A stretch of DNA of 32,000 nucleotides from Psychrobacter sp. HD31 (GTDB lineage: Bacteria; Pseudomonadota; Gammaproteobacteria; Pseudomonadales; Moraxellaceae): assembly GCF_051097895.1 (NCBI RefSeq), contig NZ_CP142525.1:300001-332000 (forward strand). Reading direction: 5' to 3'. The position numbers and the translations under genes are program-made. The notes beneath the pieces were generated by a model. That model was not told where the DNA came from. It did no database searches and saw nothing but the letters and a program-made list of their open reading frames with translations. Each line of letters opens with the position of its first letter. Positions within the stretch are counted from its first letter, which is position 1. Shown piece after piece: positions 3,871 through 31,907 of the stretch.

Positions 3871-6033
3871 TTACTTTTTAATGGGATGTGCTTTTAAATG
3901 TGTGTGCAAAATTTTGCGTAAAACGACCACTGTTTTTGGGTTGGTATGGATATCATGCCCACCTGAAATAATGGTCTCTGATTTTGCTCCCTCAAGATGT
4001 GAGCTTTTGTAAGGCACAATACCATCCGAACTTTGATTATCTTCAAATACTTCTAAGCGCGATACCAGTTCATCTTTCGCATTTCCCATAATGCTGTGGT
4101 AACTAACTCTTGAGTTAATCTTTACATTATTGGTGAGCTGCATAAAAGCAGATTTATCACTTAATTGGCTTGCACCGTTTCTTAACAGTAATGCACCTAA
4201 AGAGGTATTAGAAATTTTTTGTTCTTCATTACCAATATCAAGTCGTACAATCTCTGCGGGCAGCTTTATAATTTTACGTAAAGCTTTAGTAAACCATAAA
4301 TCGGCAAACTTAGTCCCTCTGTGAGGAGACGAAATAAAAATAGCAGTATCTATTTGTGGTATGGCATTGAGTTTAAAACGCCCTGCTAATGATGGCTGAT
4401 GGTAGGTGTTTAATAAAAAGTTGTTTAATTCATTATTTTGTATTGCTTCTGGGTCGTTGGGGCTGTTAACAAGGTCATTAAAATTTTTGGTTAAATCATT
4501 GTCTGACAGCATCATGCGAGAAATCACCCCTCCCATACTATGACCAATAATCACACTGTTTTTCCCAGCAGTCGTTGTATTGTCCGCATCTATCAATTTA
4601 TAAGCTGCTAAAATCAACCGCTGCACTTGATAGCGTGTTTCTAACATAGGCATGTTGGTTGGGTAGAAAACCTGCCAAACTTGATAGCTTTCTTGTAATT
4701 TTGGGTCATTTAAAATATCGTTGGTTAGTCCTACCCAAGTTGTGGGGCTTGAAGCAAGCCCATGCATCATAATGATTATTCGTTTATTAGGGTTGTAGGG
4801 TTCCAGCATAAATAAACGAGGTAGGCTTTGATGCTGTTTTTGGTACAACATGTTTAAATAGCCAACTTGAGATAGTTGATTTTCTACCAGCCAGCTGGCA
4901 TAACTTGCTGTAAAGTTTGCAGCTAATGGGTATTCATCACCCAATATGTTAACGGTTTTATCTTTAAATGGACTGTAAAGGTGTATGTTAAATGAATGCG
5001 TAGATAACACAGTATCTAAATTTTTACCTTTTGGTAGGATAACACTGGTTAAAAGCAAGTTTCCTGTTGGGTAGATACGAGTATGTGGGTCATCAGTTTC
5101 GTATTGTGTTTGGTTGTTATTAGAAGACTCCAACTCATTAAAGACACTGGTTTTTTGGCGACCATGCAGTTGGGCTAGATAGCTAGTGCCAAAGCCTGCT
5201 CTTTTACTGATGGTGTTTAAGCCAGAAAGCTTTAAGCTTGCTGTTGGGGTTAAGTGTTCAATATCTGCATATGATCCCGCTTTATTAAACGATGAGCTGG
5301 TGAGTTTTTGATCGTTGGGCACAAAAACGTTTAGTTGGTTATTGGCAATTGTACGGCTCATTAACCGATACTGTTGATTAGCGTTAATTTTTTTGTTGTC
5401 ATGATTGATAGATGGCTGTTCATTGGCACTTTTATAAAGGCTTTCTATAATATTATTGCTAGCCGCATTATAAATATCTTGCGTTTGAAAATCTAAATCA
5501 TTTGCCAGCTTTGCTTTTTTATAGTTTTGATTAGTTAATTGATCAAAAAACAAATAAGCATAACTATAGCGTATAGCACTCAATAAGTTGCTTTGGTAAT
5601 CAATAATACAGGCTTGAGTTTGATTGACTGCCGGGGCAATAATTTGTCCGTTTTTATTAAAAAAGGTTTTACATTGCTTTTTTTTGGTAATTTTTAAAGC
5701 ATGGTCGTAATGGAGTTCAGCCAAAATAGATAGTTGACGGGGGGTGTAAGCCGTCGAGTATTGACTGTCTTTAATTTGTGTTAGGCAATCATTAAAGTCA
5801 CTAAAACAGCTTTGTTCATCCAGCCCTGCTGTATGTAAACTAGAATAAGTGTTTGAGCTGAGATTTTTTGAGGTAATGACGTTTTCACGTTGCTTGACTA
5901 ACTGCTCGATCGGGTCTTGTGATTTGACAGAAATAGTACTACAGCCTGATAAACTGAGGACAACTGCACCCGTAATCGCCGTAAAAACGATTGTTTGTTT
6001 TAATACTGTTTGTGTTTTACGAGCGCCAAGCAT
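3871..6033 (-). CDS. Lipoprotein with C-terminal alpha/beta-hydrolase (lipase/esterase-like) domain
   Basis: Lipobox VVLSLSG|C near the N-terminus. C-terminal third carries IIMMHGLASSP (oxyanion HG), nucleophile elbow GHSMGG (Ser codon at 4537-4539), then SSDGIVP and GGHDIH as candidate Asp/His. The N-terminal ~400 aa have no motif I recognise. Confidence 0.72.
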   Translation of the reverse strand: MLGARKTQTVLKQTIVFTAITGAVVLSLSGCSTISVKSQDPIEQLVKQRENVITSKNLSSNTYSSLHTAGLDEQSCFSDFNDCLTQIKDSQYSTAYTPRQLSILAELHYDHALKITKKKQCKTFFNKNGQIIAPAVNQTQACIIDYQSNLLSAIRYSYAYLFFDQLTNQNYKKAKLANDLDFQTQDIYNAASNNIIESLYKSANEQPSINHDNKKINANQQYRLMSRTIANNQLNVFVPNDQKLTSSSFNKAGSYADIEHLTPTASLKLSGLNTISKRAGFGTSYLAQLHGRQKTSVFNELESSNNNQTQYETDDPHTRIYPTGNLLLTSVILPKGKNLDTVLSTHSFNIHLYSPFKDKTVNILGDEYPLAANFTASYASWLVENQLSQVGYLNMLYQKQHQSLPRLFMLEPYNPNKRIIIMMHGLASSPTTWVGLTNDILNDPKLQESYQVWQVFYPTNMPMLETRYQVQRLILAAYKLIDADNTTTAGKNSVIIGHSMGGVISRMMLSDNDLTKNFNDLVNSPNDPEAIQNNELNNFLLNTYHQPSLAGRFKLNAIPQIDTAIFISSPHRGTKFADLWFTKALRKIIKLPAEIVRLDIGNEEQKISNTSLGALLLRNGASQLSDKSAFMQLTNNVKINSRVSYHSIMGNAKDELVSRLEVFEDNQSSDGIVPYKSSHLEGAKSETIISGGHDIHTNPKTVVVLRKILHTHLKAHPIKK

Positions 6034-6070
6034 GTTATATCTCTTAAAATTTGCTTTAAAATATAAACTA

Positions 6071-6102
6071 AAAAAATAAAACCCAACGGTTAGCTGGGTT
6101 TT
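6071..6102 (-). terminator. Rho-independent terminator downstream of the 264-aa lipoprotein gene
   Basis: Stem aaaaccca (6078-6085) / tgggtttt (6095-6102), 9-nt loop. On the minus strand a T-rich tract follows (complement of aaaaaaataaaa). Confidence 0.6.
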
Positions 6103-6167
6103 ATCTTAACATACAATCATAGAAAACAGAGAGTACAAAGCATGAATGCTTTATTGAGAATTAAAAA

Positions 6168-6962
6168 TTAATAAATGTGTTTAACGTTAATGTTTGGTGC
6201 AGGAATATCCCAAATATAATATTTACCACTTTCTATGATGGCAATTTGCTGATCTAAAATAGGATCCACCGGGTGTTGTAATTTTAATTGTTTTAAACGT
6301 GATAAAGCGGAGCTTCGTCTATCTCTCATTAAATCTGTTTGTGCAGCGCTCTGAATGGCTTCTTTTGAGCCAAGTGCAATGGCACGATCGAGATATTTTT
6401 GCCCTTCTTTAAAGCCACCACCTTCGGCAAGTAAAAAACCATAAAGCGTGTTTGCTTCAGGCGTGCTTTTAAGTTTTAAGGCCTTTGCAACATAATTACT
6501 GGCTCTAACCGCATATTCTGAACCCATGTCTAAGTTGCGAGCCATACCGTTTAGCTCCGCAGCACGTATTAGCACATCGTAAGAGGCATTGGGTGCCATT
6601 GCATGCTCATCAATCCAATTAACATAATGTTTGATAGCGGTGCGTGTGTTGTAGCGTTGCTGTTTGTTTGGAAAATTTGGTGGGTAATGACGGGCATTTG
6701 GCGAGGCTTCGGCAATAAAAGCATCAACATTTGTTACATCTAATTGTTCGCCCATTAGGTTTTTTGCAATGCTAACGCTTGGCACAAACTCGATATCACT
6801 AATCGATACAGTCGGGGTGGGTGCTTTACCCGTAGCGTTAGAAATTGTTGTTGATGAGCTTCCCATACCAGAAAAAGGGTTGGAGCCATCTGTTACACAA
6901 CCAGTTTGTGTTGTTAAAATAGATGCTGCAAGGACAGATCCAAGAAGTTGTGTTTTTTTCAT
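6168..6962 (-). CDS. Putative lipoprotein of unknown function (possible Sel1/TPR-like helical C-terminal part)
   Basis: Signal peptide plus lipobox (ILTTQTG|C), a Ser/Thr/Gly-rich linker, then a helical region (YGFLLAEGGGFKEGQKYLDRAIALGSKEA). SD-like aaggt sits upstream of the ATG. Confidence 0.6.
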   Translation of the reverse strand: MKKTQLLGSVLAASILTTQTGCVTDGSNPFSGMGSSSTTISNATGKAPTPTVSISDIEFVPSVSIAKNLMGEQLDVTNVDAFIAEASPNARHYPPNFPNKQQRYNTRTAIKHYVNWIDEHAMAPNASYDVLIRAAELNGMARNLDMGSEYAVRASNYVAKALKLKSTPEANTLYGFLLAEGGGFKEGQKYLDRAIALGSKEAIQSAAQTDLMRDRRSSALSRLKQLKLQHPVDPILDQQIAIIESGKYYIWDIPAPNINVKHIY

Positions 6963-21306: not shown

Positions 21307-21382
21307 TCCCCAATAGCTCAGTTGGTAGAGCATCGGACTGTTAATCCGTGTGTCCCTGGTTCGAGCCCAGGTTGGGGAGCCA
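21307..21382 (+). tRNA. tRNA-Asn (anticodon GUU), CCA encoded
   Basis: Hand-folded cloverleaf of 76 nt. Acceptor tccccaa/ttgggga, D arm gctc-agttggta-gagc, anticodon loop ct-GTT-aa, T arm cctgg-ttcgagc-ccagg, discriminator g plus cca. Close to E. coli tRNA-Asn from memory. Confidence 0.96.
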
Positions 21383-21387
21383 TATGC

Positions 21388-21424
21388 AAAACCCTCATAC
21401 AATATGTATGAGGGTTTTTTATTT
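21388..21424 (+). terminator. Rho-independent terminator after tRNA-Asn
   Basis: Perfect 14-bp stem aaaaccctcataca (21388-21401) / tgtatgagggtttt (21405-21418), 3-nt loop, then a T-rich tail. Confidence 0.85.
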
Positions 21425-21623
21425 GATTAAGTTAATTGATTAAGGCAGTTTCAATCGACTCATAGAGATTTATCAAATAAACACCATGTTTGTTTATGAG
21501 CAAACAAATATATTAAAACCCTATTTTTTCAAATGAGGTTTTAACATATTTGTGGTGTAATGAAATCTAAACTAATAACTTTAAGTTAATTAGTAAGTGC
21601 AGTTAACTTTTTACACAATCATT

Positions 21624-23333
21624 TTACATTTCTGCCATCATAGCAATTAGCTTTTCAGCACCTTCAGTAATGCCTTGTTGCATTTCATCAAGCTTATCTC
21701 GGCTTATATCATCGGCAATTAATACAAACTCATAAAACTGTTTGTCCATGCTGTAGTTAACGCCAAATCCACCCTGTGAAGTTGGAACAAACACATAACG
21801 ACGAATTGGCGACTGACCACCCATAGTGGTGGTTGATAAAAAGTCTTTGCCTGCAAAAGCGTTCACCAATTCAAAAAACTGTTGGGTAACGCTATCTTCG
21901 CTAATTTCATTATCAGTTTGGCTTATTTGTTGTAAGGCATATAAATGGCGGTCTATGCCTTGCCCTGTTTTACAAGCAATTACCCAAGACTTATGCTCAG
22001 CAAAAGCATTGGTTAAATCTTTTGTCGTTGCGGTATTTTGCAACAGTTTTTCTGCCAATAATTTGGCTGATGGGGTGTTTGGACGCAAACACTCGGTTCT
22101 ACCAGCTAAATAGCTACTGGTGTCTACCGCCTCGTAAGTATTTTTTAATTGACCAAAGACTTTTAACTGAGCATATGCCAAACTAAATTGGAACAAAGCA
22201 TCATGGCTTACTTTGGTGTTAATGGCAGAATAATCGACAGTAAATTGTTGTACTTTAAAGGTTTTGGCATTGTCTGCAACAGGTTTTAACAACTCAGAAA
22301 TAGCTTGTGTTTGTTCAGAAGACAACTCCCAGTCCATGGCTGTAAGTTGAGTGTTGGCAGCCGTTTCGGCTTCGGTTGACTGTGCAAATGCATCATTGAG
22401 CAACAAACTTAGTGTTCCGCCATCAAGCCCCGTGTGCTCAACATGCACAACCATAAAGTCTGAATCTAAATCCATTTGATAAGTAAATGGTTTATATTGC
22501 CATGAGTGAGCAGGCAAAAAGGTTTGTTGTTCTAACTGTGTTATGTCATCTTCGCCCGAATGAAACAGAGAAATACAAAATAAACTATCTTTTAATGCCG
22601 AATATACCTCAGCATTGTGTGCATTTTGGCACAAATCATCCAGTTGGGTGTAAGCGTTTTCACTCGGTAAAGCACTAATTGCGGTAAAAGGTAAGCTAAC
22701 GCTATTTTCGTTGTTGGATAGTGTAGCTAATGCGCTTTCAATCTCCTCTATAGCAAATACATTGCCTTGCGAGTCAGTGACTGGAAGTAAATAATGTGAG
22801 CCCTGCCAAAATACATTGATATGGCGGTTATCCATGCCTTTATTACTATAATAATAGTCATCACAGCTTTTGTTTGGCAAACGCATGGCACCTTTTAGTG
22901 TATGCCAACCGTCCATTGATAATGGGTTACCTCGGTTATCTGTAGGAGCTTCAATTCGATTATCGATAAAATTGCGGTGGGTTTTGGTAATGCGGTGTAT
23001 CCACTCGGCAGCGCGCGTCAAGCCAGTGGATTCTGTTTGATAATTTATTTGGAATCCTACGTTACTCACTAAGGCTTTAGATTGCCTTGAGGCTAAATAC
23101 GCTGTTAGCCAAAAATCAGAAATCCAGCTTTTGCCCACTTTTGCTTGTGTTTCAGCATATTCTGATAACTGCTGTTGAAGTTTTTTACCATGAGTTTGTG
23201 CAAATTGTTGGGTAATTTTTTTGGCTTTATGGTTTGATTCAGCATCAAAAACAGGTTCGATGGCGGTTAAAAACTTATCTAATGTTTGTTCAAGTGCTGG
23301 TAATGGAAGCGGTTGTTGTAGGGTTTGTGGCAT
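21624..23333 (-). CDS. Choline/carnitine O-acyltransferase family protein (carnitine-type motif set)
   Basis: 569 aa colinear with eukaryotic carnitine acyltransferases. Shared segments are N-terminal LPLPALEQTLDKFL, catalytic VEHTGLDGG (the EHxxxDG His, codon 22434-22436), SHDALFQFSLAYAQL, NTYEAV...GRTECLR, GQGIDRHLYAL (Arg codon 21948-21950), LSTTT and GGFGVNYS. SD tggag upstream. Confidence 0.85.
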   Translation of the reverse strand: MPQTLQQPLPLPALEQTLDKFLTAIEPVFDAESNHKAKKITQQFAQTHGKKLQQQLSEYAETQAKVGKSWISDFWLTAYLASRQSKALVSNVGFQINYQTESTGLTRAAEWIHRITKTHRNFIDNRIEAPTDNRGNPLSMDGWHTLKGAMRLPNKSCDDYYYSNKGMDNRHINVFWQGSHYLLPVTDSQGNVFAIEEIESALATLSNNENSVSLPFTAISALPSENAYTQLDDLCQNAHNAEVYSALKDSLFCISLFHSGEDDITQLEQQTFLPAHSWQYKPFTYQMDLDSDFMVVHVEHTGLDGGTLSLLLNDAFAQSTEAETAANTQLTAMDWELSSEQTQAISELLKPVADNAKTFKVQQFTVDYSAINTKVSHDALFQFSLAYAQLKVFGQLKNTYEAVDTSSYLAGRTECLRPNTPSAKLLAEKLLQNTATTKDLTNAFAEHKSWVIACKTGQGIDRHLYALQQISQTDNEISEDSVTQQFFELVNAFAGKDFLSTTTMGGQSPIRRYVFVPTSQGGFGVNYSMDKQFYEFVLIADDISRDKLDEMQQGITEGAEKLIAMMAEM

Positions 23334-23630
23334 TGTTGAACTCCAAAAATATTAGGGTAGATTTTTTATCGTGTTAATAAATTGCAGATTAAGATTATTG
23401 TAGCACTCAATGCCGAGTTATTCTTACAATTATATGACCTATTAAGCTATTAAAATGGTTAAATGAGCTCATGAGTAGTGGCATAATAATTCTTTTAAGC
23501 GCATTATCATGACTATCGTAACTGAGATTAAAAAGCCCTACTAAAAAGCCCTTAAAAGTAAGGGAGTGAAAATGTACAAAATAGTACCTTTTGCGAGTTT
23601 AATACTATGATGCAAACTAAGTTCGGTTAC

Positions 23631-23668
23631 TATAAATTTGGTTTTTATAAATTTGGTTTTTATAAATA
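23631..23668. repeat. Tandem 15-nt direct repeat (2.5 copies) upstream of the PPTase gene
   Basis: tataaatttggtttt at 23631-23645 and again at 23646-23660, then a partial tataaata at 23661-23668. It lies 53-90 nt upstream of ATG 23721. Confidence 0.8.
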
Positions 23669-23720
23669 TGAAATGTGGGCTTAAATGATTATATTTTAAT
23701 TAACAGATGGGTAAAAAGGC

Positions 23721-24383
23721 ATGGTTATCTATTTACGTCATATTGATTTTCCTGTCAGGCGCAGTGTGTTAGCTACTTTAAAACAAGATGTCAGCCCGAG
23801 CCGTTTGCAACGTGCTGAGCGTTATCATCACCTAAAAGATAGCGTACGTTGTTTGATGGCTGGGCAGTTGCTAAATCATGCGTTAACTCAGCATGGGTTA
23901 CCCAGTGATGATAAACATATTGTGCAAAACCGTTTTGGCAAACCTATGTTTAAGGCTGATGGTTTGGGCTATTTTAATTTATCTCATTCTGGTAGCTGGG
24001 TCGTTTGTGCTGTTGATAAGCAAATGGTTGGTATTGATGTCGAGCAATGCCGTACGGACATAGATTTTGAAGTGATGAGTTTATTTAGCCGTGCTGAACA
24101 AATTTACATTAATAATGGCAGTGATAAAAATAAGCTTGCCCGTTTTTATCGTATTTGGACGTTAAAAGAAAGTTATTTGAAGGCATTAGGGGTAGGGGTT
24201 TCGCAACCACTCAATAGCTTTACTATCCATGTTTTAGATGGCAATCATGCTTGTATAGAAATTAATCAACAAAGGCAAACAGATTGGTATTTTTACTATT
24301 GCGACTTGGATGCCAGTCATGTTTGTGCGATTTGTACAAAGCAGCCCATTTCTACAAATGACTTTCAGTTTTGTACTGACTGA
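23721..24383 (+). CDS. 4'-phosphopantetheinyl transferase, Sfp type
   Basis: 220 aa with FGKPMF, FNLSHSG, VGIDVE and WTLKESYLKALG, the canonical Sfp/EntD-family motifs. It lies directly upstream of the carrier-protein-containing megasynthase. Confidence 0.92.
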   Translation: MVIYLRHIDFPVRRSVLATLKQDVSPSRLQRAERYHHLKDSVRCLMAGQLLNHALTQHGLPSDDKHIVQNRFGKPMFKADGLGYFNLSHSGSWVVCAVDKQMVGIDVEQCRTDIDFEVMSLFSRAEQIYINNGSDKNKLARFYRIWTLKESYLKALGVGVSQPLNSFTIHVLDGNHACIEINQQRQTDWYFYYCDLDASHVCAICTKQPISTNDFQFCTD

Positions 24384-24509
24384 CCATTACCAGATTAACG
24401 GGTTTTGTCATAATTATTCATGTTATAGTGATGATATAAATCAGTTAATTTAAAATATGAACTAACCCAGAATTATTAACTCACCCACAATAAAAAGAAC
24501 CTTCTTGTT

Positions 24510-27500
24510 ATGTCTTCAAATTATACAGTATCTCCTTGGTTAACTTATTTCACACCTCGTCCACATGCCAAAGTGCGTTTATTTTGTATCCCTCATGGTG
24601 GCGGCGGTGCGCAAAATTTTAAAGATTGGGCAGAGTCATTGCCAGAATTTATAGAAGTGGTTGCGTTAAGCTTCCCTGGTCGGGGTAGTCGACACGCTGA
24701 GCCCGCCATTCACTCAATGGGTGAACTTGTTAATGAGATTGTTAATGCAATCACGCCGTTTTTAGACAAACCTTATGCCTTTTTTGGGCACAGTGTTGGT
24801 GCTTTAGTGGCATATGAGGTTGTTTGCCGTATTGAGCAAGCAAATCAAACAGAAGGCACAACCTTAAAGTTGCCCATGCGTCTTATTACCTCAGCGCATG
24901 AAGTGCCCGCAGAGTCGCATGCTGATACACCCATGTATCAATTATCGGATGCTGAGTTACTCAACAAAATTGGTGAACTTGGTTTGGTGCCAGACGAGGC
25001 ATTGCAAAACAAAGAGTTAGTCGATTTTATTTTACCGCCTTTACGGGCAGACTTTGAGGTGTCAGAAACTTATCAATGGCAAAAGGCTGAGCCATTAACC
25101 GTACCGATTACCGCAACATTGGGAGATAAAGATACCTTATTAACCGAACAAGATATGCATAGCTGGCGTGCTTATACCTGTCGTGATTTTGCTTTTAAAT
25201 GCTATGAGGGTGACCACTTTTATACAGTTTCTAAAATGTCTGAGCTGTTAGCAGATATCACCGGTGAGCTAGAGCAAGATTTAAACAATCAACCGTTATC
25301 TATGATGATGGGTGATAGCAGCCAGTATCCAGAAAAATGCTTGCATGAACTATTTAGAGAGCAAGCAAAACAACATCTAGACCGTATTGCCATTTGTGAC
25401 CCAGCTCAATCGCTCACCTTTAAGCAGTTAGATGAGCAAACCGATATTTTGGCAAGGGAGCTGCAAAAACGTGGGGTGGTGGTTGATAGTTTGGTTAGTA
25501 TCTTTATGGAAAGCTCTGTTGAATATGTGGTGGCGTATTTAGCCATCTTAAAAGCAGGCGGTGCTTATATGCCGTTAGAGGTTGCTTACCCAACAGATTT
25601 GCTAGAAAGAGTCTTAACCAAAACTCAACCGATTGCTATTTTAACAACGTCTGATTATGCACCACAGCTGCCAAAACAGTGGTTGGATGATGAGTGTGCG
25701 GTGAATTTAGATGGTGATTGGGTGTCGCCAATTTTAAATAAAATAGACGCTGGCGAATTGCCAGAGCTTGATAAAGACAGAGCGTTACCAACGCTTGATA
25801 GCTTGGCGTATTGCGTGATGTCATCTGGTACAACAGGTGAGCCTAAAGGCATTTTGTGTCCGCATCGGGGTGCTGTAAATTCTTATTATTGGCGTTATCG
25901 CAATCACCCTTATCAAAATGGTGAGAGAGAAGCGGCCAATGTGTTTTTTGTGTGGGAAGTGGTGCGTCCACTATTACAAGGCTATCCTGCTTATATTATT
26001 CCAGACAGTGTGATTTATGACCCTTGGCAATTGGTTGATTATCTTGAATCAAACGACATTACACGGGTGCTATTTACTCCATCATTGCTTGAGCAAATAT
26101 TAAATACACCAGACTTAGATTTAAGCAATCGCTTAGCCAAGTTGCAAATAGTTTGGCTAAATGGTGAGGTGGTACCAAGTGCCTTGTGTAAACGCTTTTT
26201 TGAAGTATTGCCAAATTGTCAGCTTATTAATGATTATAGTATCTCTGAAACCCACGATGTTTGTACACATGATTTAGCCACCTTAAATGATATGCACTCG
26301 CCAAAATTTGCACCTTTGGGGTTGCCAATGTCTAATGTACGCATTTATTTATTAGATGATAATTTGCAGCCTGTACCACAAGGTATCCCTGCAGAAGTTT
26401 ATGTGGCTGGCGACTCATTGGCACGTTGCTATTTGGGTGATCCTGACAAAACGGCCGAGCGATTTTTGCCTGACCCATTTGCTAAAAAATCAGCAGAGGA
26501 ATCTAATGAGCCGATTATGTTTAGAACAGGTGACATGGGGCGAATTTTGCCCAGTGGTGAGTTAGAAATTACTGGGCGTGTCGAGTTTATGATTAAACTA
26601 CGTGGTTATACCATTGTATTGGGGGCAGTTGAAACCTCAATTAATGCCCATGAGGGGGTGCATTCTTCTGCCGTTATTACCAAAGATAATGAGCAAACTG
26701 GTCAGCCAGAGGCATTGGTGGCTTATATTGTGAGCAATGCCACCATGGCAGATGATGCGCTAATTGCTGCTTTAAAAACGCATTTAAAAGGGCATTTACC
26801 ACAGTATGCCGTGCCCAGTTATTTTATGCCTATCAAAGCCTTGCCTTTGCATGCGGTAACGGGCAAGCTCGACCGAAAACAGCTACCTGAGCCAACAAAT
26901 ATACAAGCGACAACTTTAAATAATGATAGCAATGATACCGTTATGATGATGGCAAGCCCAACTGAACAAGTGATTTTGCAAGCGTGGCAAAAGCATTTGG
27001 GTGTTGCGGCCAGCTCATTAGCTGATAATTTTTTTGATTTGGGTGGGCATTCTTTACTAGCCATTCAGGTTTGTCGATCAATTTCTAATGAACTGGGCAT
27101 AAATGTTTCTGTCATTGATATTTTTACCAATCCTACCATTGCGTCTTTGGCAAGTGAGTTGGATGCAAAAATTAATCATGATGATAACGAACTAGAAGAA
27201 GCTGATATAACCGCCAACTCATTTAATGAAATAGGCGATACCTCAACCGAACTTGCTATTGTTGGTATGGCAGCACATTTCCCTGGGGCGGATAATATTG
27301 ATGAGTTTTGGGATAACTTGCGTAATGGGGTCTGCTCGATTAGAGAGCTAACCGATGAGGAGTTAGACAAAAACGGAGTGCCAAAGTCGGTATATAGCGA
27401 CGAAAACTACCGCAAAGTTGGTGCGGTGCTTGATAATGTGGATTATTTTGACCCTAAGTTTTGGCAACTAAGCAAAAAAGAAGCCGAAATCATGGACCCA

Positions 27501-30500
27501 CAACACCGCCTGTTTTTAGAAACCTGTTGGCATGCACTAGAACACGCTGGTTATGCCCCTAATGAAAATGGTCAGCGTACTGGTGTATTTGGTGGCTGTT
27601 ATTCACCTTTATATTTATTGCATAACCTAGCTGGTGGTGGCTTTATGGATGCCACCGACCCAATCGGTTATCACATGACCGAAACCGGCAATGATAAAGA
27701 CTACTTAACCACACGTGTGTCTTATTTATTAAATTTGCAAGGTCCGAGTATTGCGGTGCAAAGCTCTTGCTCAACAGCGTTGTCTGTGGTGGCAAGTGCC
27801 TGTGAATCTTTACAGACTCGCCACTGTGATGTTGCCTTGGCTGGCGCATCGAGCATTATCTTCCCACAAGCGGGCTATCAATATGTAGAAGGACATATCA
27901 ACTCAAAAGATGGCAAGATACGCACCTTTGATGCAAAGGCTAACGGCACGATTTTAGGCGATGGCGTTGGGGTAGTGGTTCTAAAACGCTTGGATGATGC
28001 CATCAACGCTGGCGATACAATTTATGCCGTGATTAAAGGTTATGCAAACAATAATGATGGTCATGATAAAACGGGTTATTCTGCTCCTAGCGTTAAAGGG
28101 CAAAAGGCAGTTATCACACGTGCTTTAGAGTCTGCCAAGGTTACAGCCGATAGTATCTCTTATGTAGAAGCGCATGGTACAGGCACCTTGATTGGTGATC
28201 CGATTGAAACCAAGGCTTTAACTGAGGTGTTTAGGCGTTATTCATCAGCGCAAAATTTTTGTGCTTTGGGGTCAGTCAAACCAAATATTGGGCACAGTAA
28301 TATTGCCGCAGGTATGGCAAGTTTAATGAAGGCAACATTAAGCTTGTATCACAAGCAAATACCACCAACGCTCAATTTTGAGTTGCCGAACCCATTAATA
28401 GATATTGAAAACAGCCCGTTTTACATCAATAACACATTAAAACCATGGCAAACAACACTAAATATGCCAAGGCGTGCAGGTGTGACTTGTTTGGGGATTG
28501 GCGGTACTAATAACCATTTTGTATTAGAAGAAGCACCGCAGTCACAAACTGGCTTAAATGATGATAAATTGCCTGATACTGCTATCGTAGAGGAGGCACG
28601 TAATCATCATTTATTGGTTGTGAGTGGCAAAACAGCGGCTGCTTGTCAGCGTAATCTGCAAAATTTAGCTGATTATTTGCAAAAGTACCCTGAGCTTAAT
28701 TTGCAAGATGTTGAATTTACGCTACAACAAGGGCGTTATCATTTTGAATATCGACGTGCTGTTTCTTGTATCAATGTTAAAGATGCCATTGCTAGTTTAC
28801 GTTTAGCAGCTAAGCAAACGTTAAATACGACTATCAACTTTGCTGTTAAAAAGCCTAGCGACAAGCAAGCGGTATCAGATATTAACACGGTATTTTTATT
28901 CCCCGGTCAAGGCTCGCAACACCAAAAAATGGGATATGACTTATATCACAATGAGCCTGTTTTTAAACGCCATTTTGACGAGTGTTGTCAGCTTTTACAG
29001 CCATTACTAAATATAGACATTCGTACACTTTTATTTGCAGATGATGATTCAGCCAAAGCAAAAGAAACCTTTAAATACGCTTATTATACCCAGCCAATGA
29101 TTGTGGCACATCAAATTGCGATGGCACGCACTTTAATGGATTGGGGCATTAAACCTGATGCGGTCGCAGGTCATAGCATTGGTGAATATACGGCTGCCTA
29201 TGTGGCAGGCATTTTTAGCCTAGAAGATACTTTAAGTTTGATTGTTGCCCGTGGGCGTGCCATGGAGCAAGCTGGCGAAGGGCGTATGCTGGCGGTTAAA
29301 ATGAGTGAGGCTAAGGCACGTAACTGGCTAATAACTCATCCAGATATTGCTTGTGATGTGGACCTTGGTGTGATTAATACACCCGAAAATGTGGTGCTAT
29401 CTGGCACTACTGAAGCCATCGAGCAAGTAAAAACTGCCTTGCAAAATGACGGTGTTGTTTGCCAAGCGGTGAATGTGCGTCAAGCGTTTCATTCAGCGAT
29501 GATGGATGAACCGTCAAAAGCACTGATTGACGCAGTAGCACCGCTAACTCGTAATATGCCAACCATCCCCATTATGTCAAATGTGACAGGTGTTTGGATG
29601 ACAGAACAGCAAGTGCATGATGATGCTTATTGGGCAGAGCACATGCGTGGCACGGTCAACTTTGCCAGTAATATTACCAATTTATTAAAACAGTCACCAA
29701 GTACCATTATCGAAGCCGGTGCCAGCACCATTTTAACCAAGTCTTTGCAGGCGTTCACAGCGGATATGCCAGTAGAAGAACAGCCCATGGTAACTGCGTG
29801 TGCCAGACACCCTAAAGATAATAGTACCCTAGACACTAAAGCATTAGATAATGCAATCAGTCAGTTGTGGATAGCAGGTCGTTATATAGATTGGTCACAA
29901 TATCGTGGTGATAAGGGTAACTATAGTGATGATGCCAACAGCCGACGCCCTGCACGCCGCATTGGGTTGCCTGGCTACGCCTTTGAGCCTGAAAGCTATT
30001 GGGTTAATGAAGGTGCCTTGGTTGCAGATAGTGCAAACAATATGCCAGTGGATGATAACGCCATGATTACCGATATGAGTCATCGAGGCTTTATTCCATC
30101 TTGGTCTTGCAGTGCTTTTGCGGTTGCTAATCAAGATTTATCAGACCAACGCTGGTTGATTGTGAGTAGCAATCAATCACAAAAAATTGATGAGTTGTGC
30201 CAATATGTGGTTAACCAATTACAGCAAGCAGGGGCAAAAGTGCGGGTGGTTGACCCAGCTCAGCTGCAACTGGATTCAGCCGTGGCTTATGCTAACTACT
30301 TGAACCAGTTGTCGGATAGTGGTGAGTTCCCTAATCGTGTGTTGTATTTAAACAGTTTAACGGCAGGTGACACCTTAGAGCTTACACAAGATGATAGCAA
30401 TGATAAACAAACACAGCTAGATGCAACTTATTACCCTACACTTTATTTTGCGCAAGGCTTGGCAACACAAGCTTGCCTTGATCCAATTGATGTGTGGATG

Positions 30501-31907
30501 CTGACGGATAGCACATTCCAAGTTAGTGATGAAGCTATTGACCCAATAAAATCAACCATGTTGGGCGCTGCCATTGTGTTGCCACAAGAGTACCCTCAGA
30601 TTGCGTGTCGTACCATTGATATCCGACCACAAATGATGGATAGCACCGCAGTTAAAAAACGTATTTTGGCAGAAATAAGTACAGCCAAGCCTGATAGCGA
30701 GCCATTTGTTGCTTTGCGTGGTTCAAAGCGTTGGGTTAAACGTTATGAAAATGCAACGATTCCTGCTGTCTCTTCAAATTGTGAAGAGGATAATAATGGG
30801 CAAGGTGCTATCAAAAAACAGGGCACGTATCTAATTACTGGTGGGCTTGGGCGTATTGCTCGTGAACTTTGTAAACACTTGGCTACACATAATACCAACC
30901 TTGTACTCACCACAACCAGAGAGTTCCCTGAAAAATCATCATGGCATACCCTTGCTGGTTTAAACGAGCAAGATGCTAATTTTAACCCACAAATGACACA
31001 AACAATTAAGCATTTGCTTCAGCTAGAGCAGGCTGGGGCAACTGTAAAAGTGGTTACCACAAGGTTGCACGAGCTAGACGCAGTGCAAGCCTTAGTTGAT
31101 GAAACGGTTAACGAGTTTGGTGGGTTAGATGGGGTTTTCCATTTGGCTGGATTGGCAGATTTACGCTATTTACCAGAAATTGATGTCGCTATTTCACAAA
31201 AAGAGTTTGAGCCAAAAATTGCTGGGCTACTCAATATCTCACAAACACTAGCAAGAGGTATTGAAACGCATCAAATCCAACCTGATTTTGTGATGTTGTT
31301 TTCATCTTTGGCATCCATATTAGGGGGCTATAGTATGACGGCCTATACCGCTGCCAACCGTTTTATGGACTCTTATGCGGCAGCTAACCCTTGGCGACAT
31401 GGCATCCGCTGGTTTTGTGTGAACTGGGATGATTGGGACTTTGACTATAGCAAAGAGCAAACAACCGCTTATGAGCAAACAGTTGCAAAATTTGCCATGC
31501 CAATAGCAGAGGGTATCGAGACCATAGAACGACTATTGGCGATGCCTGAACCACAACAGTGGCTGATATCTACCCGTCCATTATCACCAAGGGTAACCAA
31601 GTGGCTTCAGCAAAATAATCAAAATGAACCAGCCGATAATATGAAGCAGCTCGATGATGAACATCGAGAGATAGATGAGCGTGATTTATTGCTCCGTGTT
31701 TTGGCGGTTTATTGTGATGTGCTGAGCATGCCAAGTTACCAAGCAACAGATAACTTTTTTGCTGCTGGTGGTGACAGCTTATTGGCAAGTCAAATACTGT
31801 TGCAATTGCAACGAAACCTTGGCGAGTACAGAGAAAGTTTGACGCTGGCGAGTATATTCGATAATCCTACTCCGCAAGACTTAGTGGACTTTTTAGAGAG
31901 TAAATAA
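24510..31907 (+). CDS. Hybrid NRPS-PKS megasynthase, domain order TE(II-like)-A-T-KS-AT-KR-T
   Basis: Single 2465-aa ORF. All core motifs were read directly from the translation (see the domain sub-features). There is no condensation domain and no C-terminal release domain. Confidence 0.95.
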   Translation: MSSNYTVSPWLTYFTPRPHAKVRLFCIPHGGGGAQNFKDWAESLPEFIEVVALSFPGRGSRHAEPAIHSMGELVNEIVNAITPFLDKPYAFFGHSVGALVAYEVVCRIEQANQTEGTTLKLPMRLITSAHEVPAESHADTPMYQLSDAELLNKIGELGLVPDEALQNKELVDFILPPLRADFEVSETYQWQKAEPLTVPITATLGDKDTLLTEQDMHSWRAYTCRDFAFKCYEGDHFYTVSKMSELLADITGELEQDLNNQPLSMMMGDSSQYPEKCLHELFREQAKQHLDRIAICDPAQSLTFKQLDEQTDILARELQKRGVVVDSLVSIFMESSVEYVVAYLAILKAGGAYMPLEVAYPTDLLERVLTKTQPIAILTTSDYAPQLPKQWLDDECAVNLDGDWVSPILNKIDAGELPELDKDRALPTLDSLAYCVMSSGTTGEPKGILCPHRGAVNSYYWRYRNHPYQNGEREAANVFFVWEVVRPLLQGYPAYIIPDSVIYDPWQLVDYLESNDITRVLFTPSLLEQILNTPDLDLSNRLAKLQIVWLNGEVVPSALCKRFFEVLPNCQLINDYSISETHDVCTHDLATLNDMHSPKFAPLGLPMSNVRIYLLDDNLQPVPQGIPAEVYVAGDSLARCYLGDPDKTAERFLPDPFAKKSAEESNEPIMFRTGDMGRILPSGELEITGRVEFMIKLRGYTIVLGAVETSINAHEGVHSSAVITKDNEQTGQPEALVAYIVSNATMADDALIAALKTHLKGHLPQYAVPSYFMPIKALPLHAVTGKLDRKQLPEPTNIQATTLNNDSNDTVMMMASPTEQVILQAWQKHLGVAASSLADNFFDLGGHSLLAIQVCRSISNELGINVSVIDIFTNPTIASLASELDAKINHDDNELEEADITANSFNEIGDTSTELAIVGMAAHFPGADNIDEFWDNLRNGVCSIRELTDEELDKNGVPKSVYSDENYRKVGAVLDNVDYFDPKFWQLSKKEAEIMDPQHRLFLETCWHALEHAGYAPNENGQRTGVFGGCYSPLYLLHNLAGGGFMDATDPIGYHMTETGNDKDYLTTRVSYLLNLQGPSIAVQSSCSTALSVVASACESLQTRHCDVALAGASSIIFPQAGYQYVEGHINSKDGKIRTFDAKANGTILGDGVGVVVLKRLDDAINAGDTIYAVIKGYANNNDGHDKTGYSAPSVKGQKAVITRALESAKVTADSISYVEAHGTGTLIGDPIETKALTEVFRRYSSAQNFCALGSVKPNIGHSNIAAGMASLMKATLSLYHKQIPPTLNFELPNPLIDIENSPFYINNTLKPWQTTLNMPRRAGVTCLGIGGTNNHFVLEEAPQSQTGLNDDKLPDTAIVEEARNHHLLVVSGKTAAACQRNLQNLADYLQKYPELNLQDVEFTLQQGRYHFEYRRAVSCINVKDAIASLRLAAKQTLNTTINFAVKKPSDKQAVSDINTVFLFPGQGSQHQKMGYDLYHNEPVFKRHFDECCQLLQPLLNIDIRTLLFADDDSAKAKETFKYAYYTQPMIVAHQIAMARTLMDWGIKPDAVAGHSIGEYTAAYVAGIFSLEDTLSLIVARGRAMEQAGEGRMLAVKMSEAKARNWLITHPDIACDVDLGVINTPENVVLSGTTEAIEQVKTALQNDGVVCQAVNVRQAFHSAMMDEPSKALIDAVAPLTRNMPTIPIMSNVTGVWMTEQQVHDDAYWAEHMRGTVNFASNITNLLKQSPSTIIEAGASTILTKSLQAFTADMPVEEQPMVTACARHPKDNSTLDTKALDNAISQLWIAGRYIDWSQYRGDKGNYSDDANSRRPARRIGLPGYAFEPESYWVNEGALVADSANNMPVDDNAMITDMSHRGFIPSWSCSAFAVANQDLSDQRWLIVSSNQSQKIDELCQYVVNQLQQAGAKVRVVDPAQLQLDSAVAYANYLNQLSDSGEFPNRVLYLNSLTAGDTLELTQDDSNDKQTQLDATYYPTLYFAQGLATQACLDPIDVWMLTDSTFQVSDEAIDPIKSTMLGAAIVLPQEYPQIACRTIDIRPQMMDSTAVKKRILAEISTAKPDSEPFVALRGSKRWVKRYENATIPAVSSNCEEDNNGQGAIKKQGTYLITGGLGRIARELCKHLATHNTNLVLTTTREFPEKSSWHTLAGLNEQDANFNPQMTQTIKHLLQLEQAGATVKVVTTRLHELDAVQALVDETVNEFGGLDGVFHLAGLADLRYLPEIDVAISQKEFEPKIAGLLNISQTLARGIETHQIQPDFVMLFSSLASILGGYSMTAYTAANRFMDSYAAANPWRHGIRWFCVNWDDWDFDYSKEQTTAYEQTVAKFAMPIAEGIETIERLLAMPEPQQWLISTRPLSPRVTKWLQQNNQNEPADNMKQLDDEHREIDERDLLLRVLAVYCDVLSMPSYQATDNFFAAGGDSLLASQILLQLQRNLGEYRESLTLASIFDNPTPQDLVDFLESK
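24567..25274 (+). other. Domain: N-terminal thioesterase, type-II-like (PF00975-like)
   Basis: LFCIPHGGGGAQNF, GHSVGA (Ser95 codon 24792-24794), GDKD and GDHFY. This is the typical TEII motif order. Confidence 0.8.
25332..26894 (+). other. Domain: adenylation (A), non-canonical specificity pocket
   Basis: A1 LTFKQLDE, A2 LKAGGAYMPLE, A3 LAYCVMSSGTTGEPKG, A5-like NDYSISETHD, A7 FRTGDMG, A8 GRVEFMIKLRGYTIVLGAVE, A10 TGKLDRKQLP. The FDxS (A4) position reads NVFF. Confidence 0.9.
26952..27164 (+). other. Domain: thiolation/PCP (T1)
   Basis: FFDLGGHSLLAIQV, Ser848 codon 27051-27053. Confidence 0.9.
27246..28538 (+). other. Domain: ketosynthase (KS), Cys-His-His intact
   Basis: IVGMAAHFPGA, EAEIMDPQHRLFLE, QSSCSTAL (Cys1087 codon 27768-27770), VEAHGTGT, NIGHSNIAAG, GIGGTNNHFVLEE. 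Confidence 0.92.
28887..29789 (+). other. Domain: acyltransferase (AT), malonyl-type motifs
   Basis: FLFPGQGSQ, GHSIGEY (Ser1556 codon 29175-29177), a downstream Arg (ARGRAM), and QAFHS at the HAFH/YASH position, which is closer to the malonyl signature HAFH. The post-AT linker LPGYAFEPESYW follows. Confidence 0.85.
30117..31559 (+). other. Domain: ketoreductase (structural plus catalytic subdomains)
   Basis: Rossmann YLITGGLGRIAREL (from 30831) and the catalytic region FSSLASILGGYSMTAYTAAN. HLAGLADLRYL sits at the LDD-motif position with no Trp at the A-type position, a tentative B-type call. No DH or ER motifs (HxxxGxxxxP absent by eye). Confidence 0.8.
31677..31904 (+). other. Domain: C-terminal carrier protein (T2/ACP)
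   Basis: NFFAAGGDSLLASQIL, Ser2423 codon 31776-31778. The protein ends 42 aa later. Confidence 0.88.

Follow-up and report, generated by a model that had tools for sequence, protein, structure and literature searches.

A BurA-type megasynthase of Psychrobacter sp. HD31 as a candidate carnitine synthase primed with glycine betaine

Onium acids are carboxylic acids that carry a permanently charged ammonium or sulfonium group. Here we analyze a hybrid nonribosomal peptide synthetase-polyketide synthase (NRPS-PKS) for which one of them, glycine betaine, is the proposed starter. The protein, hereafter the megasynthase, is encoded in a stretch of 32,000 nucleotides from Psychrobacter sp. HD31 (positions 300,001 to 332,000 of contig NZ_CP142525.1, assembly GCF_051097895.1), which we call the window.

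The only characterized relative of the megasynthase is BurA (MalA) of Burkholderia thailandensis and B. pseudomallei, which synthesizes gonyol in the pathway to malleicyprol (PMC7496086, PMC9428774). The adenylation (A) domain of BurA lacks Asp235 and loads dimethylsulfoniopropionate (DMSP), extension with malonyl and reduction then yield gonyol, and BurA alone is sufficient for this in E. coli (PMC7496086). Its polypeptide begins with a thioesterase (TE), TE-A (Ser90), followed by the A domain, a carrier (T) domain, a ketosynthase (KS), an acyltransferase (AT), a second thioesterase, TE-B (Ser2023), a ketoreductase (KR) and an acyl carrier protein (ACP; Ser2746) (PMC9428774). TE-A is type-II-like, and its S90A substitution has no effect on the product; TE-B is essential and hydrolyzes gonyol that is delivered 'backwards' from the C-terminal ACP (PMC9428774).

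Glycine betaine itself is activated by ATRR, a fungal NRPS-like reductase, in which F201, W204 and W270 form an aromatic cage and E304 provides the counter-charge for the trimethylammonium group; with a sulfonium analogue in place of betaine, ATRR still works but is slower by about ten-fold (bioRxiv 10.1101/559534). A 'shorter loop' with hydrophobic residues has been reported for the A domains of both BurA and ATRR (PMC7496086). A conversion of glycine betaine to carnitine has been observed in the North Pacific, where microbial communities turned 13C5,15N-glycine betaine into intact 13C5,15N-carnitine and then into gamma-butyrobetaine (Boysen et al., PMC9321204). Reversal of degradative enzymes was suggested for this conversion in seawater, and the responsible enzyme is not known (PMC9321204).

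Starter pocket and gene neighbors of the megasynthase

With slightly better than even confidence, we propose that the megasynthase would form carnitine from glycine betaine and a malonyl unit, as an onium-acid-primed NRPS-PKS of the BurA type. Its Pfam domains follow the order TE-A-T-KS-AT-KR-T and include no condensation domain in the 2465 residues, in agreement with the original prediction, which had been made from the letters of the window. The motifs quoted in that prediction were all found in their places: GHSVGA at residue 93, GDKD at 205 and GDHF at 234 in the thioesterase, GGHSL at 845 in the first carrier domain (T1), the Cys-His-His set of the KS (SSCSTAL at 1085, EAHGTGT at 1220, NIGH at 1259), GHSIGE at 1554 and QAFHS at 1658 in the AT, TGGLGRIA at 2110 and YTAAN at 2279 in the KR, and GGDSL at 2420 in the second carrier domain (T2). 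Read by its motifs, the KR also has the Lys, Ser and Tyr residues of its active site, and the GHSIG and AFHS motifs of the AT indicate the malonyl type by the established motif rule.

The thioesterase, previously placed at residues 20-255 and described as type-II-like, coincides with a Pfam Thioesterase domain and has the free-standing RifR as its best solved relative (1e-41). The proposal that the A-T pair acts as a starter module for the KS is borne out by BurA, which works in this way (PMC7496086). Nor is the fused open reading frame (ORF) an artefact: among the 120 best homologs, whose identity goes as low as about 36%, about 100 match it in length and carry an N-terminal TE, with GHSxG at about residue 95. 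The fusion had been considered atypical. It is genuine, but it has already been described in BurA, and the layout is widespread, occurring in more than 100 protein clusters from Gamma-, Alpha- and Epsilonproteobacteria, Desulfobacterota, Actinobacteria, Cyanobacteria and Chloroflexota. The architecture is thus common, and what has been characterized is a close variant of it. It remains plausible that the window protein is a self-contained minimal assembly line, as suggested earlier; the main interest lies in its starter acid and gene neighborhood, neither of which the original prediction mentioned.

The 80 loci of a genome scan did not include BurA of B. thailandensis itself, and as a stand-in we used a locus of Noviherbaspirillum (L055; family loci are numbered with the prefix L), chosen for its bur-like neighbors (an aldehyde dehydrogenase, a pyridoxal phosphate (PLP)-dependent decarboxylase, a ketol-acid reductoisomerase (KARI) of the BurG family and a TauD protein of the BurC family) and for the two thioesterase domains of its 2,724-aa megasynthase, in which TE-B occupies aa 1908-2149 with the motif GMSYG. 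The window protein is collinear with it over aa 14-1833 at 38.5% identity.

The A domains of the family were aligned to GrsA-PheA; the textbook code DAWTIAAICK was recovered, which supports the accuracy of the alignment. Asp235 is absent across the whole family, with positions 235-236 falling in a two-residue gap, and in the window protein this gap fits the short-loop description of the BurA and ATRR A domains. The predicted pocket of the window protein comprises F479, W482 (position 239), Leu (278), W549 (299), N551 (301), D575 (322), D583 (330), Val (331) and Lys (517). Its code from 239 to 517, WLWNDDVK, is common to its own clade, and the remainder of a large clade defined by N301, D322 and D330 (the N-D-D clade) reads WL(Y/I/V)NDDVK. 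The code of the bur-type protein (L055) is WIFTMDVK, differing from that of the window protein in four of eight positions (278, 299, 301 and 322), and a Mesorhizobium/Sinorhizobium clade has WLYS(Y/H/N)DVK. In a neighbor-joining tree of A domains the bur-type protein is the earliest branch, and the Mesorhizobium and N-D-D clades form separate groups. The window protein is a member of the BurA superfamily that is set apart, judged by its alignment, by a missing TE-B and another pocket, and that lies outside a bur context. F479, W482, W549 and D583 are offset by 3, 67 and 101 residues, close to the 3, 66 and 100 of the cage and counter-charge of ATRR, a comparison of spacing that uses published residue numbers. 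The PDB matches of the A domain were all canonical NRPS A domains, and an ATRR structure was not among them.

The genome scan yielded 60 family loci, and their ORFs were clustered to find recurring neighbors; markers were counted within 10 kb of the megasynthase, in loci that are phylogenetically related, so that the counts are not of independent events. The most frequent neighbor is a choline/carnitine O-acyltransferase homolog (PF00755), present in 19 loci including the window and found in gammaproteobacterial metagenome-assembled genomes (MAGs) from the dolphin mouth, Arcobacter, Magnetococcales and Hyphomicrobiaceae/Filomicrobium. The second, in 17 loci of the N-D-D clade, is a pair of genes for glycine/sarcosine (GSMT) and sarcosine/dimethylglycine (SDMT) N-methyltransferases, which together make up the pathway from glycine to betaine. 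The GSMT scores 479 bits on NF051855 (cut-off 350) and matches PDB 5gwx at 6e-118; the SDMT has NF041675 as its top match and hits PDB 2o57 at 2e-63. The pair may lie divergently upstream, co-directionally downstream (L018) or as a fusion of 573 aa (L024), and the survival of the linkage through these rearrangements argues for functional coupling. Other neighbors in the N-D-D clade are OpuAC-type betaine ABC transporters (L006, L008, L084, L086), BCCT transporters (L050, L083), CaiB-type family III CoA-transferases (L012, L086) and gamma-butyrobetaine-hydroxylase-like dioxygenases (L013, L054). At least one betaine- or carnitine-type marker was found near the megasynthase in 34 of 48 N-D-D loci, versus one of 19 loci of the Mesorhizobium clade.

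In the window, the acyltransferase homolog is a full-length PF00755 protein about 25% identical to animal enzymes. Aligned with CPT2, its VHVEHTGLDGG pairs with VHFEHSWGDG (the catalytic EH), TYEAV...GRTE with TYESC...GRTE, and GQGIDRHL with GQGFDRHL. The Tyr and Thr of the TYE...GRTE segment and the Arg of DRHL are residues that we take to be binders of the carnitine carboxylate; choline acetyltransferase reportedly has Asn in place of this Arg. Among the 18 homologous neighbors and the window protein, EH, TYE and GRT are present in all, as is the Arg of DRH, the motif reading ERY in L007. The bacterial choline acetyltransferase of the hexapeptide-repeat type was considered as a further comparison and set aside as irrelevant. 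A gene for a 4'-phosphopantetheinyl transferase (PPTase) stands at the same place upstream of the megasynthase in L001, L083 and L087, and the trio of acyltransferase, PPTase and megasynthase is kept in a 96% (L087) and an 85% (L001) relative.

Taken together, the neighbors (GSMT/SDMT, OpuA/BCCT and carnitine-type enzymes) and the pocket point to betaine as the input and carnitine as the output. A broader statement seems to us an even bet: that the N301/D322/D330 family consists of thiotemplated 'carnitine synthases' working de novo from betaine and malonyl-CoA, that their partner acyltransferases form acylcarnitines, that they are the missing enzyme of the betaine-to-carnitine labeling in the ocean, and that release is the ancestral job of the puzzling N-terminal TE in BurA-type enzymes.

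Proposed route, product release and alternative starters

The neighboring Sfp-type PPTase, to judge from its location, would convert both carriers into holo-T1 and holo-T2. The A domain would adenylate glycine betaine and load it on T1, as its pocket and context suggest; the AT would load malonyl on T2, and condensation by the KS would give 4-trimethylammonio-3-oxobutyryl-S-T2, to be reduced by the KR to 3-hydroxy-4-trimethylammoniobutyryl-S-T2, that is, carnitinyl-S-T2. From loading to reduction this would be the reaction of BurA, except that a C2 ammonium acid takes the place of the C3 sulfonium acid. Hydrolysis of carnitinyl-S-T2 by the N-terminal TE, to which the missing TE-B and the invariant triad point, could then free carnitine, and the divergently encoded acyltransferase may esterify its 3-hydroxyl with an acyl-CoA to produce an O-acylcarnitine. 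The betaine substrate, the carnitine product, release by the TE, what the acyltransferase does and how C3 is configured are what we infer from sequence comparison.

The KR deserves separate comment. In its segment at aa 2190-2290 (about 31080-31380) the alignment places HLAGLADLRY at the position of the LDD motif throughout the N-D-D clade, with Leu where A-type KRs have Trp and with intact catalytic residues. LDD is present in the KR of the bur-type protein (L055) and of a relative that contains a dehydratase (DH) domain. By these motifs the KR of the N-D-D clade matches neither stereochemical class; a reading of its 'LAD' as a B-type signature was dropped after alignment to LDD-bearing KRs. 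The difference from the bur-type KR seems worth noting, and on its own predicts no stereochemistry. By working through the priority rules, the (3S)-gonyol of BurA has the spatial arrangement of D-carnitine.

Several observations weigh against the proposed carnitine synthesis. The subfamily is known from sequence alone, and the 32-kb window has no gene for betaine synthesis or transport, its local support being the acyltransferase and the PPTase only. Position 299 of the pocket varies within the N-D-D clade (W, Y, I or V), the likeness to ATRR is one of residue spacing only, and no validated rule ties these codes to betaine. Fourteen of the 48 N-D-D loci have no marker gene nearby (four of these are short fragments), the kinship among N-D-D loci deprives the neighbor counts of independence, and the substrates of OpuA and BCCT transporters extend to choline, carnitine, DMSP and proline betaine. 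With neither LDD nor the Trp signature in its KR, the product could be D- or L-carnitine. The homologous TE-A of BurA, finally, could not replace TE-B, as S2023A abolished the product (PMC9428774), and with TE-A unable to stand in for TE-B, release of a beta-hydroxy onium acyl chain by a domain of this kind is unproven.

Release is the weakest step of the proposed mechanism. No counterpart of TE-B was found in the window protein, in which the TE-B of L055 matches only the N-terminal TE (26% identity), and none was found in all 65 family loci examined besides L055; nor does a GxSxG motif occur anywhere from AT to KR in the family. Proteins without TE-B are the norm in these 66 loci, and the one exception has the BurA form. 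As the window protein has no TE-B, the N-terminal TE is its only hydrolase in cis, and we regard it, somewhat less confidently than the overall route, as the candidate release catalyst. After RifR, its solved relatives are RedJ-like, TesA, the surfactin thioesterase subunit and YbtT, all of them stand-alone; the GHSMGA, GDHD and GGHF motifs of RifR pair with those of Ser95, Asp208 and His236, a triad that is invariant in 106 of 106 family sequences, down to 33% identity. A different division of labor, to which we give a smaller chance, would leave this TE merely to proofread mis-primed carriers, as proposed for TE-A of BurA, with the T2 chain removed in trans by the acyltransferase homolog (onto an alcohol) or by another hydrolase. 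The dispensability of Ser90 and the loss of product without TE-B in BurA favor such a division, as does the proximity of the domain to editing type II thioesterases such as RifR, and the Hyphomicrobiaceae clusters have an Abhydrolase_3 lipase directly after the acyltransferase. Fused carnitine-acyltransferase (cAT) domains of fungal PKSs offload ACP-bound chains onto polyols, so that release in trans is kept as a serious rival. Many loci, however, among them those of Desulfopila (L008) and Gephyromycinifex (L085), have no acyltransferase or other hydrolase nearby and still need release, and proofreading sits less well with the invariant triad. Enzymes of the type II fold can also release products, a stand-alone medium-chain thioesterase of fatty acid synthase (4xjv) being among the structure matches, and the residues of the acyltransferases that align with the carnitine-site motifs of CPT2 are as expected if free carnitine is the acceptor.

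The identity of the starter has alternatives of its own. A small cationic or non-amino acid other than betaine (dimethylglycine, sarcosine, beta-alanine betaine, proline betaine or gamma-butyrobetaine), giving a homolog of carnitine, is unlikely. It would be compatible with a pocket code that has no validated predictor and varies at 299, with promiscuous transporters, and with sarcosine and dimethylglycine being intermediates of GSMT/SDMT; but SDMT always accompanies GSMT, pointing to the fully methylated end product, the F/W/W set with its acid matches in residue spacing that of ATRR, the one A domain for which a requirement for the complete trimethylammonium group is known, and the acyltransferase keeps residues aligning with TYE, GRTE and DRHL of CPT2. 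Loading of DMSP or dimethylsulfonioacetate, as in an equivalent of BurA whose gonyol, or sulfonium analogue of it, would serve as an osmolyte or a building block, is quite unlikely, even though the sole characterized relative loads DMSP, the shortened 235 loop and Asp330 are common to both proteins, ATRR tolerates a sulfonium betaine, BCCT and OpuA transporters can carry DMSP, and several carriers of the gene are marine. The pocket differs from the bur-type code and the KR does not have the bur-type LDD; bur-type genes (for a SET methyltransferase, a PLP decarboxylase, a KARI or a BurC-type cluster) stand beside none of the N-D-D loci; glycine N-methyltransferases, whose product is betaine rather than DMSP, adjoin 17 of them, and the carnitine-type neighbors fit a C4 trimethylammonium product. 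An ordinary hybrid primed with an amino acid, leading to a gamma-amino-beta-hydroxy acid or a pyrrolidinone, is very improbable. In NRPS-PKS hybrids amino acids are commonly extended by A-T-KS-AT-KR-T modules, and some NCBIfam models for amino-acid adenylation match in part; yet no NCBIfam model reaches its cut-off for the megasynthase (neither it nor the acyltransferase has an equivalog), Asp235, which binds the alpha-amino group, is missing from the whole family, and the neighborhoods hold no evidence of amino-acid chemistry.

The locus and its relatives in other genomes

Table 1. Features of the megasynthase cluster (positions counted from the first letter of the window; aa, residues of the megasynthase)
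Feature	Position	Strand	Evidence and remarks
tRNA-Asn(GTT)	21307..21382	+	Rfam scan; boundary between housekeeping genes and three-gene cluster
Choline/carnitine O-acyltransferase homolog, 569 aa	21624..23333	-	PF00755 1.3e-90, 305 bits (cut-off 22.3); divergent from the PPTase-megasynthase pair
Sfp-type 4'-phosphopantetheinyl transferase	23721..24383	+	Pfam ACPS 1.7e-18, AASDHPPT_N; directly upstream of megasynthase
Megasynthase ORF, TE-A-T-KS-AT-KR-T	24510..31907	+	2465 aa, uninterrupted, ATG start
N-terminal type-II-like thioesterase, aa 23-250	24576..25259	+	Pfam PF00975 3e-38; triad Ser95/Asp208/His236
Adenylation domain, aa 282-781	25353..26852	+	Pfam AMP-binding 282-642, AMP-binding_C 707-781
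Carrier domain T1, aa 820-882	26967..27155	+	Pfam PP-binding; GGHSL, Ser848
Ketosynthase, aa 914-1291	27249..28382	+	Pfam; Cys1087, His1222, His1262
KS-AT linker	aa 1293-1434 of ORF	+	Pfam
Acyltransferase, aa 1461-1763	28890..29798	+	Pfam; GHSIGE, QAFHS
AT-KR interdomain and KR structural subdomain, aa 1764-2104	29799..30821	+	Site of TE-B in BurA-type proteins; hydrolase absent here
Ketoreductase catalytic subdomain, aa 2105-2309	30822..31436	+	TGGLGRIA, Lys2236, Ser2266, Tyr2279
C-terminal carrier domain T2, about aa 2395-2460	31692..31889	+	Second Pfam PP-binding stretch; GGDSL, Ser2423

The tRNA-Asn gene marks the exact border between a housekeeping block (TamA/TamB, NUDIX, an aminotransferase and GloB) and the acyltransferase, PPTase and megasynthase genes. 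Over the megasynthase the GC content climbs to 0.40-0.45, from about 0.34-0.39, and the downstream flank differs between the 96% and the 85% relative, with a photolyase in L087 and WG_beta_rep in L001. The three-gene cluster (21383-31907) looks like a horizontally acquired islet, with the tRNA-Asn gene as a possible insertion site. In Mixta mediterraneensis (L011) the gene immediately upstream of the megasynthase, at 5544-6422, encodes an IS-type integrase (rve), as would fit a mobile megasynthase gene. The Rfam scan of the window gave only a tRNA and no riboswitch upstream of the cluster. Elsewhere in the window, between RNase HII and an MFS transporter and unrelated to the cluster, are a 720-aa protein (3871-6033, minus strand) with weak lipase-like matches to PGAP1/DUF676 and a 264-aa ORF (6168-6962, minus strand) with no Pfam match.

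The cluster is longer and highly conserved in Hyphomicrobiaceae/Filomicrobium (L017, L020-L023, L026, L032, L036, L056, L057), where it comprises genes for GSMT, SDMT, the megasynthase, the carnitine acyltransferase, an esterase of the hormone-sensitive-lipase type, a pirin and a PlsC-type acyltransferase. Their composition gives a hint that the end product in these bacteria is not free carnitine but a lipid containing carnitine, or that acylcarnitines are cycled. Two loci, L086 (15783-21084, on a 10-Mb ENA contig) and L012 (17554-21559, in a Chloroflexota MAG), have a double CaiB-like CoA-transferase after the megasynthase, followed in L086 by an Oxidored_FMN/Pyr_redox flavoprotein; this order is reminiscent of the Cai respiration genes that lead from carnitine via crotonobetaine to gamma-butyrobetaine.

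The rhizobial clade (L029, L033-L049, L059-L061; Mesorhizobium, Sinorhizobium, Aminobacter and Azorhizobium) has the same TE-A-T-KS-AT-KR-T architecture, with Ser301 and Tyr, His or Asn at 322 in its pocket (NHYGATEVHDV versus NDYSISETHDV). Betaine or carnitine genes were not found near its members, some of which lie on plasmids. The starter acid of this clade is probably a different one. In four MAG loci (L009, L022, L024, L051) the megasynthase is split into two to four ORFs, which are either assembly frameshifts or decaying copies.

Significance and comparison with known systems

Eukaryotic carnitine derives from trimethyllysine, and bacteria, to our knowledge, are described as importing carnitine or converting close precursors, not as synthesizing it de novo. 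If our proposal is correct, a betaine-primed PKS would constitute a second, chemically unrelated route to carnitine, and glycine betaine would join the very short list of assembly-line onium starters, among which DMSP in BurA is the only one shown. A literature search, reaching few subscription journals, found no PKS route to carnitine, only fungal cAT offloading and the work on BurA. The family would also provide a searchable gene for the flux from glycine betaine to carnitine and gamma-butyrobetaine in the North Pacific, for which the window protein is a candidate, and a thermodynamically driven alternative to reversed degradative enzymes (PMC9321204). It bears as well on the question, raised by BurA, of why a 'non-essential' N-terminal TE is kept in all homologs. 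Cultured carriers, namely Desulfopila sp. IMCC35008, Gephyromycinifex aptenodytis, Piscicoccus intestinalis NBRC 104926 and Mixta mediterraneensis, make the hypothesis testable.

The route suggested for seawater, reversal of carnitine dehydrogenase and of the enzyme that cleaves beta-keto acids (BKACE), likewise extends glycine betaine by C2 to dehydrocarnitine and then reduces it (PMC9321204). It proceeds through free CoA esters, by enzymes for which only the degradative direction is known, whereas the chemistry proposed here would be thiotemplated and driven by decarboxylation of malonyl. ATRR, which acts on a quaternary ammonium carboxylate, lacks Asp235 as the window protein does, and by published residue numbers its F/W/W set and acidic residue have nearly the spacing of F479, W482, W549 and D583, but it is a eukaryotic A-T-R-R protein that reduces betaine to choline, while the window protein has no reductase domains and continues after T1 with a PKS module. 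The N-terminal TE belongs to the fold family of type II thioesterases such as RifR, with its Ser-Asp-His motifs in the RifR positions; unlike those free-standing enzymes, which act in trans, it is fused before a loading A domain and is the only TE in the subfamily. The neighboring acyltransferase has the PF00755 fold of carnitine/choline acyltransferases (CPT2, CrAT), the catalytic His and motifs aligning with the TYE, GRTE and DRHL of CPT2, and its genetic link to a PKS recalls the cAT domains of fungal highly reducing PKSs (Tv6-931, luteodienoside LtbA); it is bacterial and free-standing.

The closest comparison is with BurA. Both proteins combine an N-terminal type-II-like TE with A, T, KS, AT, KR and ACP domains on one polypeptide without a condensation domain, and both lack Asp235 and have a shortened loop and an acidic residue at 330. 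The window protein differs, with the bur-type L055 as reference, in its pocket at 278, 299, 301 and 322 and in the missing LDD of its KR, and it does not have the intramodular releasing TE-B. Its neighbors are a carnitine acyltransferase and a PPTase in place of the genes for DMSP synthesis and the cyclopropanol; the bur-type set (DMSP synthesis, BurC, BurG) is absent at the window and, among the scanned loci, occurs at L055 only. The placement of the TE is thus known from BurA, and what is new is the betaine-primed, carnitine-forming reading with the N-terminal TE as the only candidate for release.

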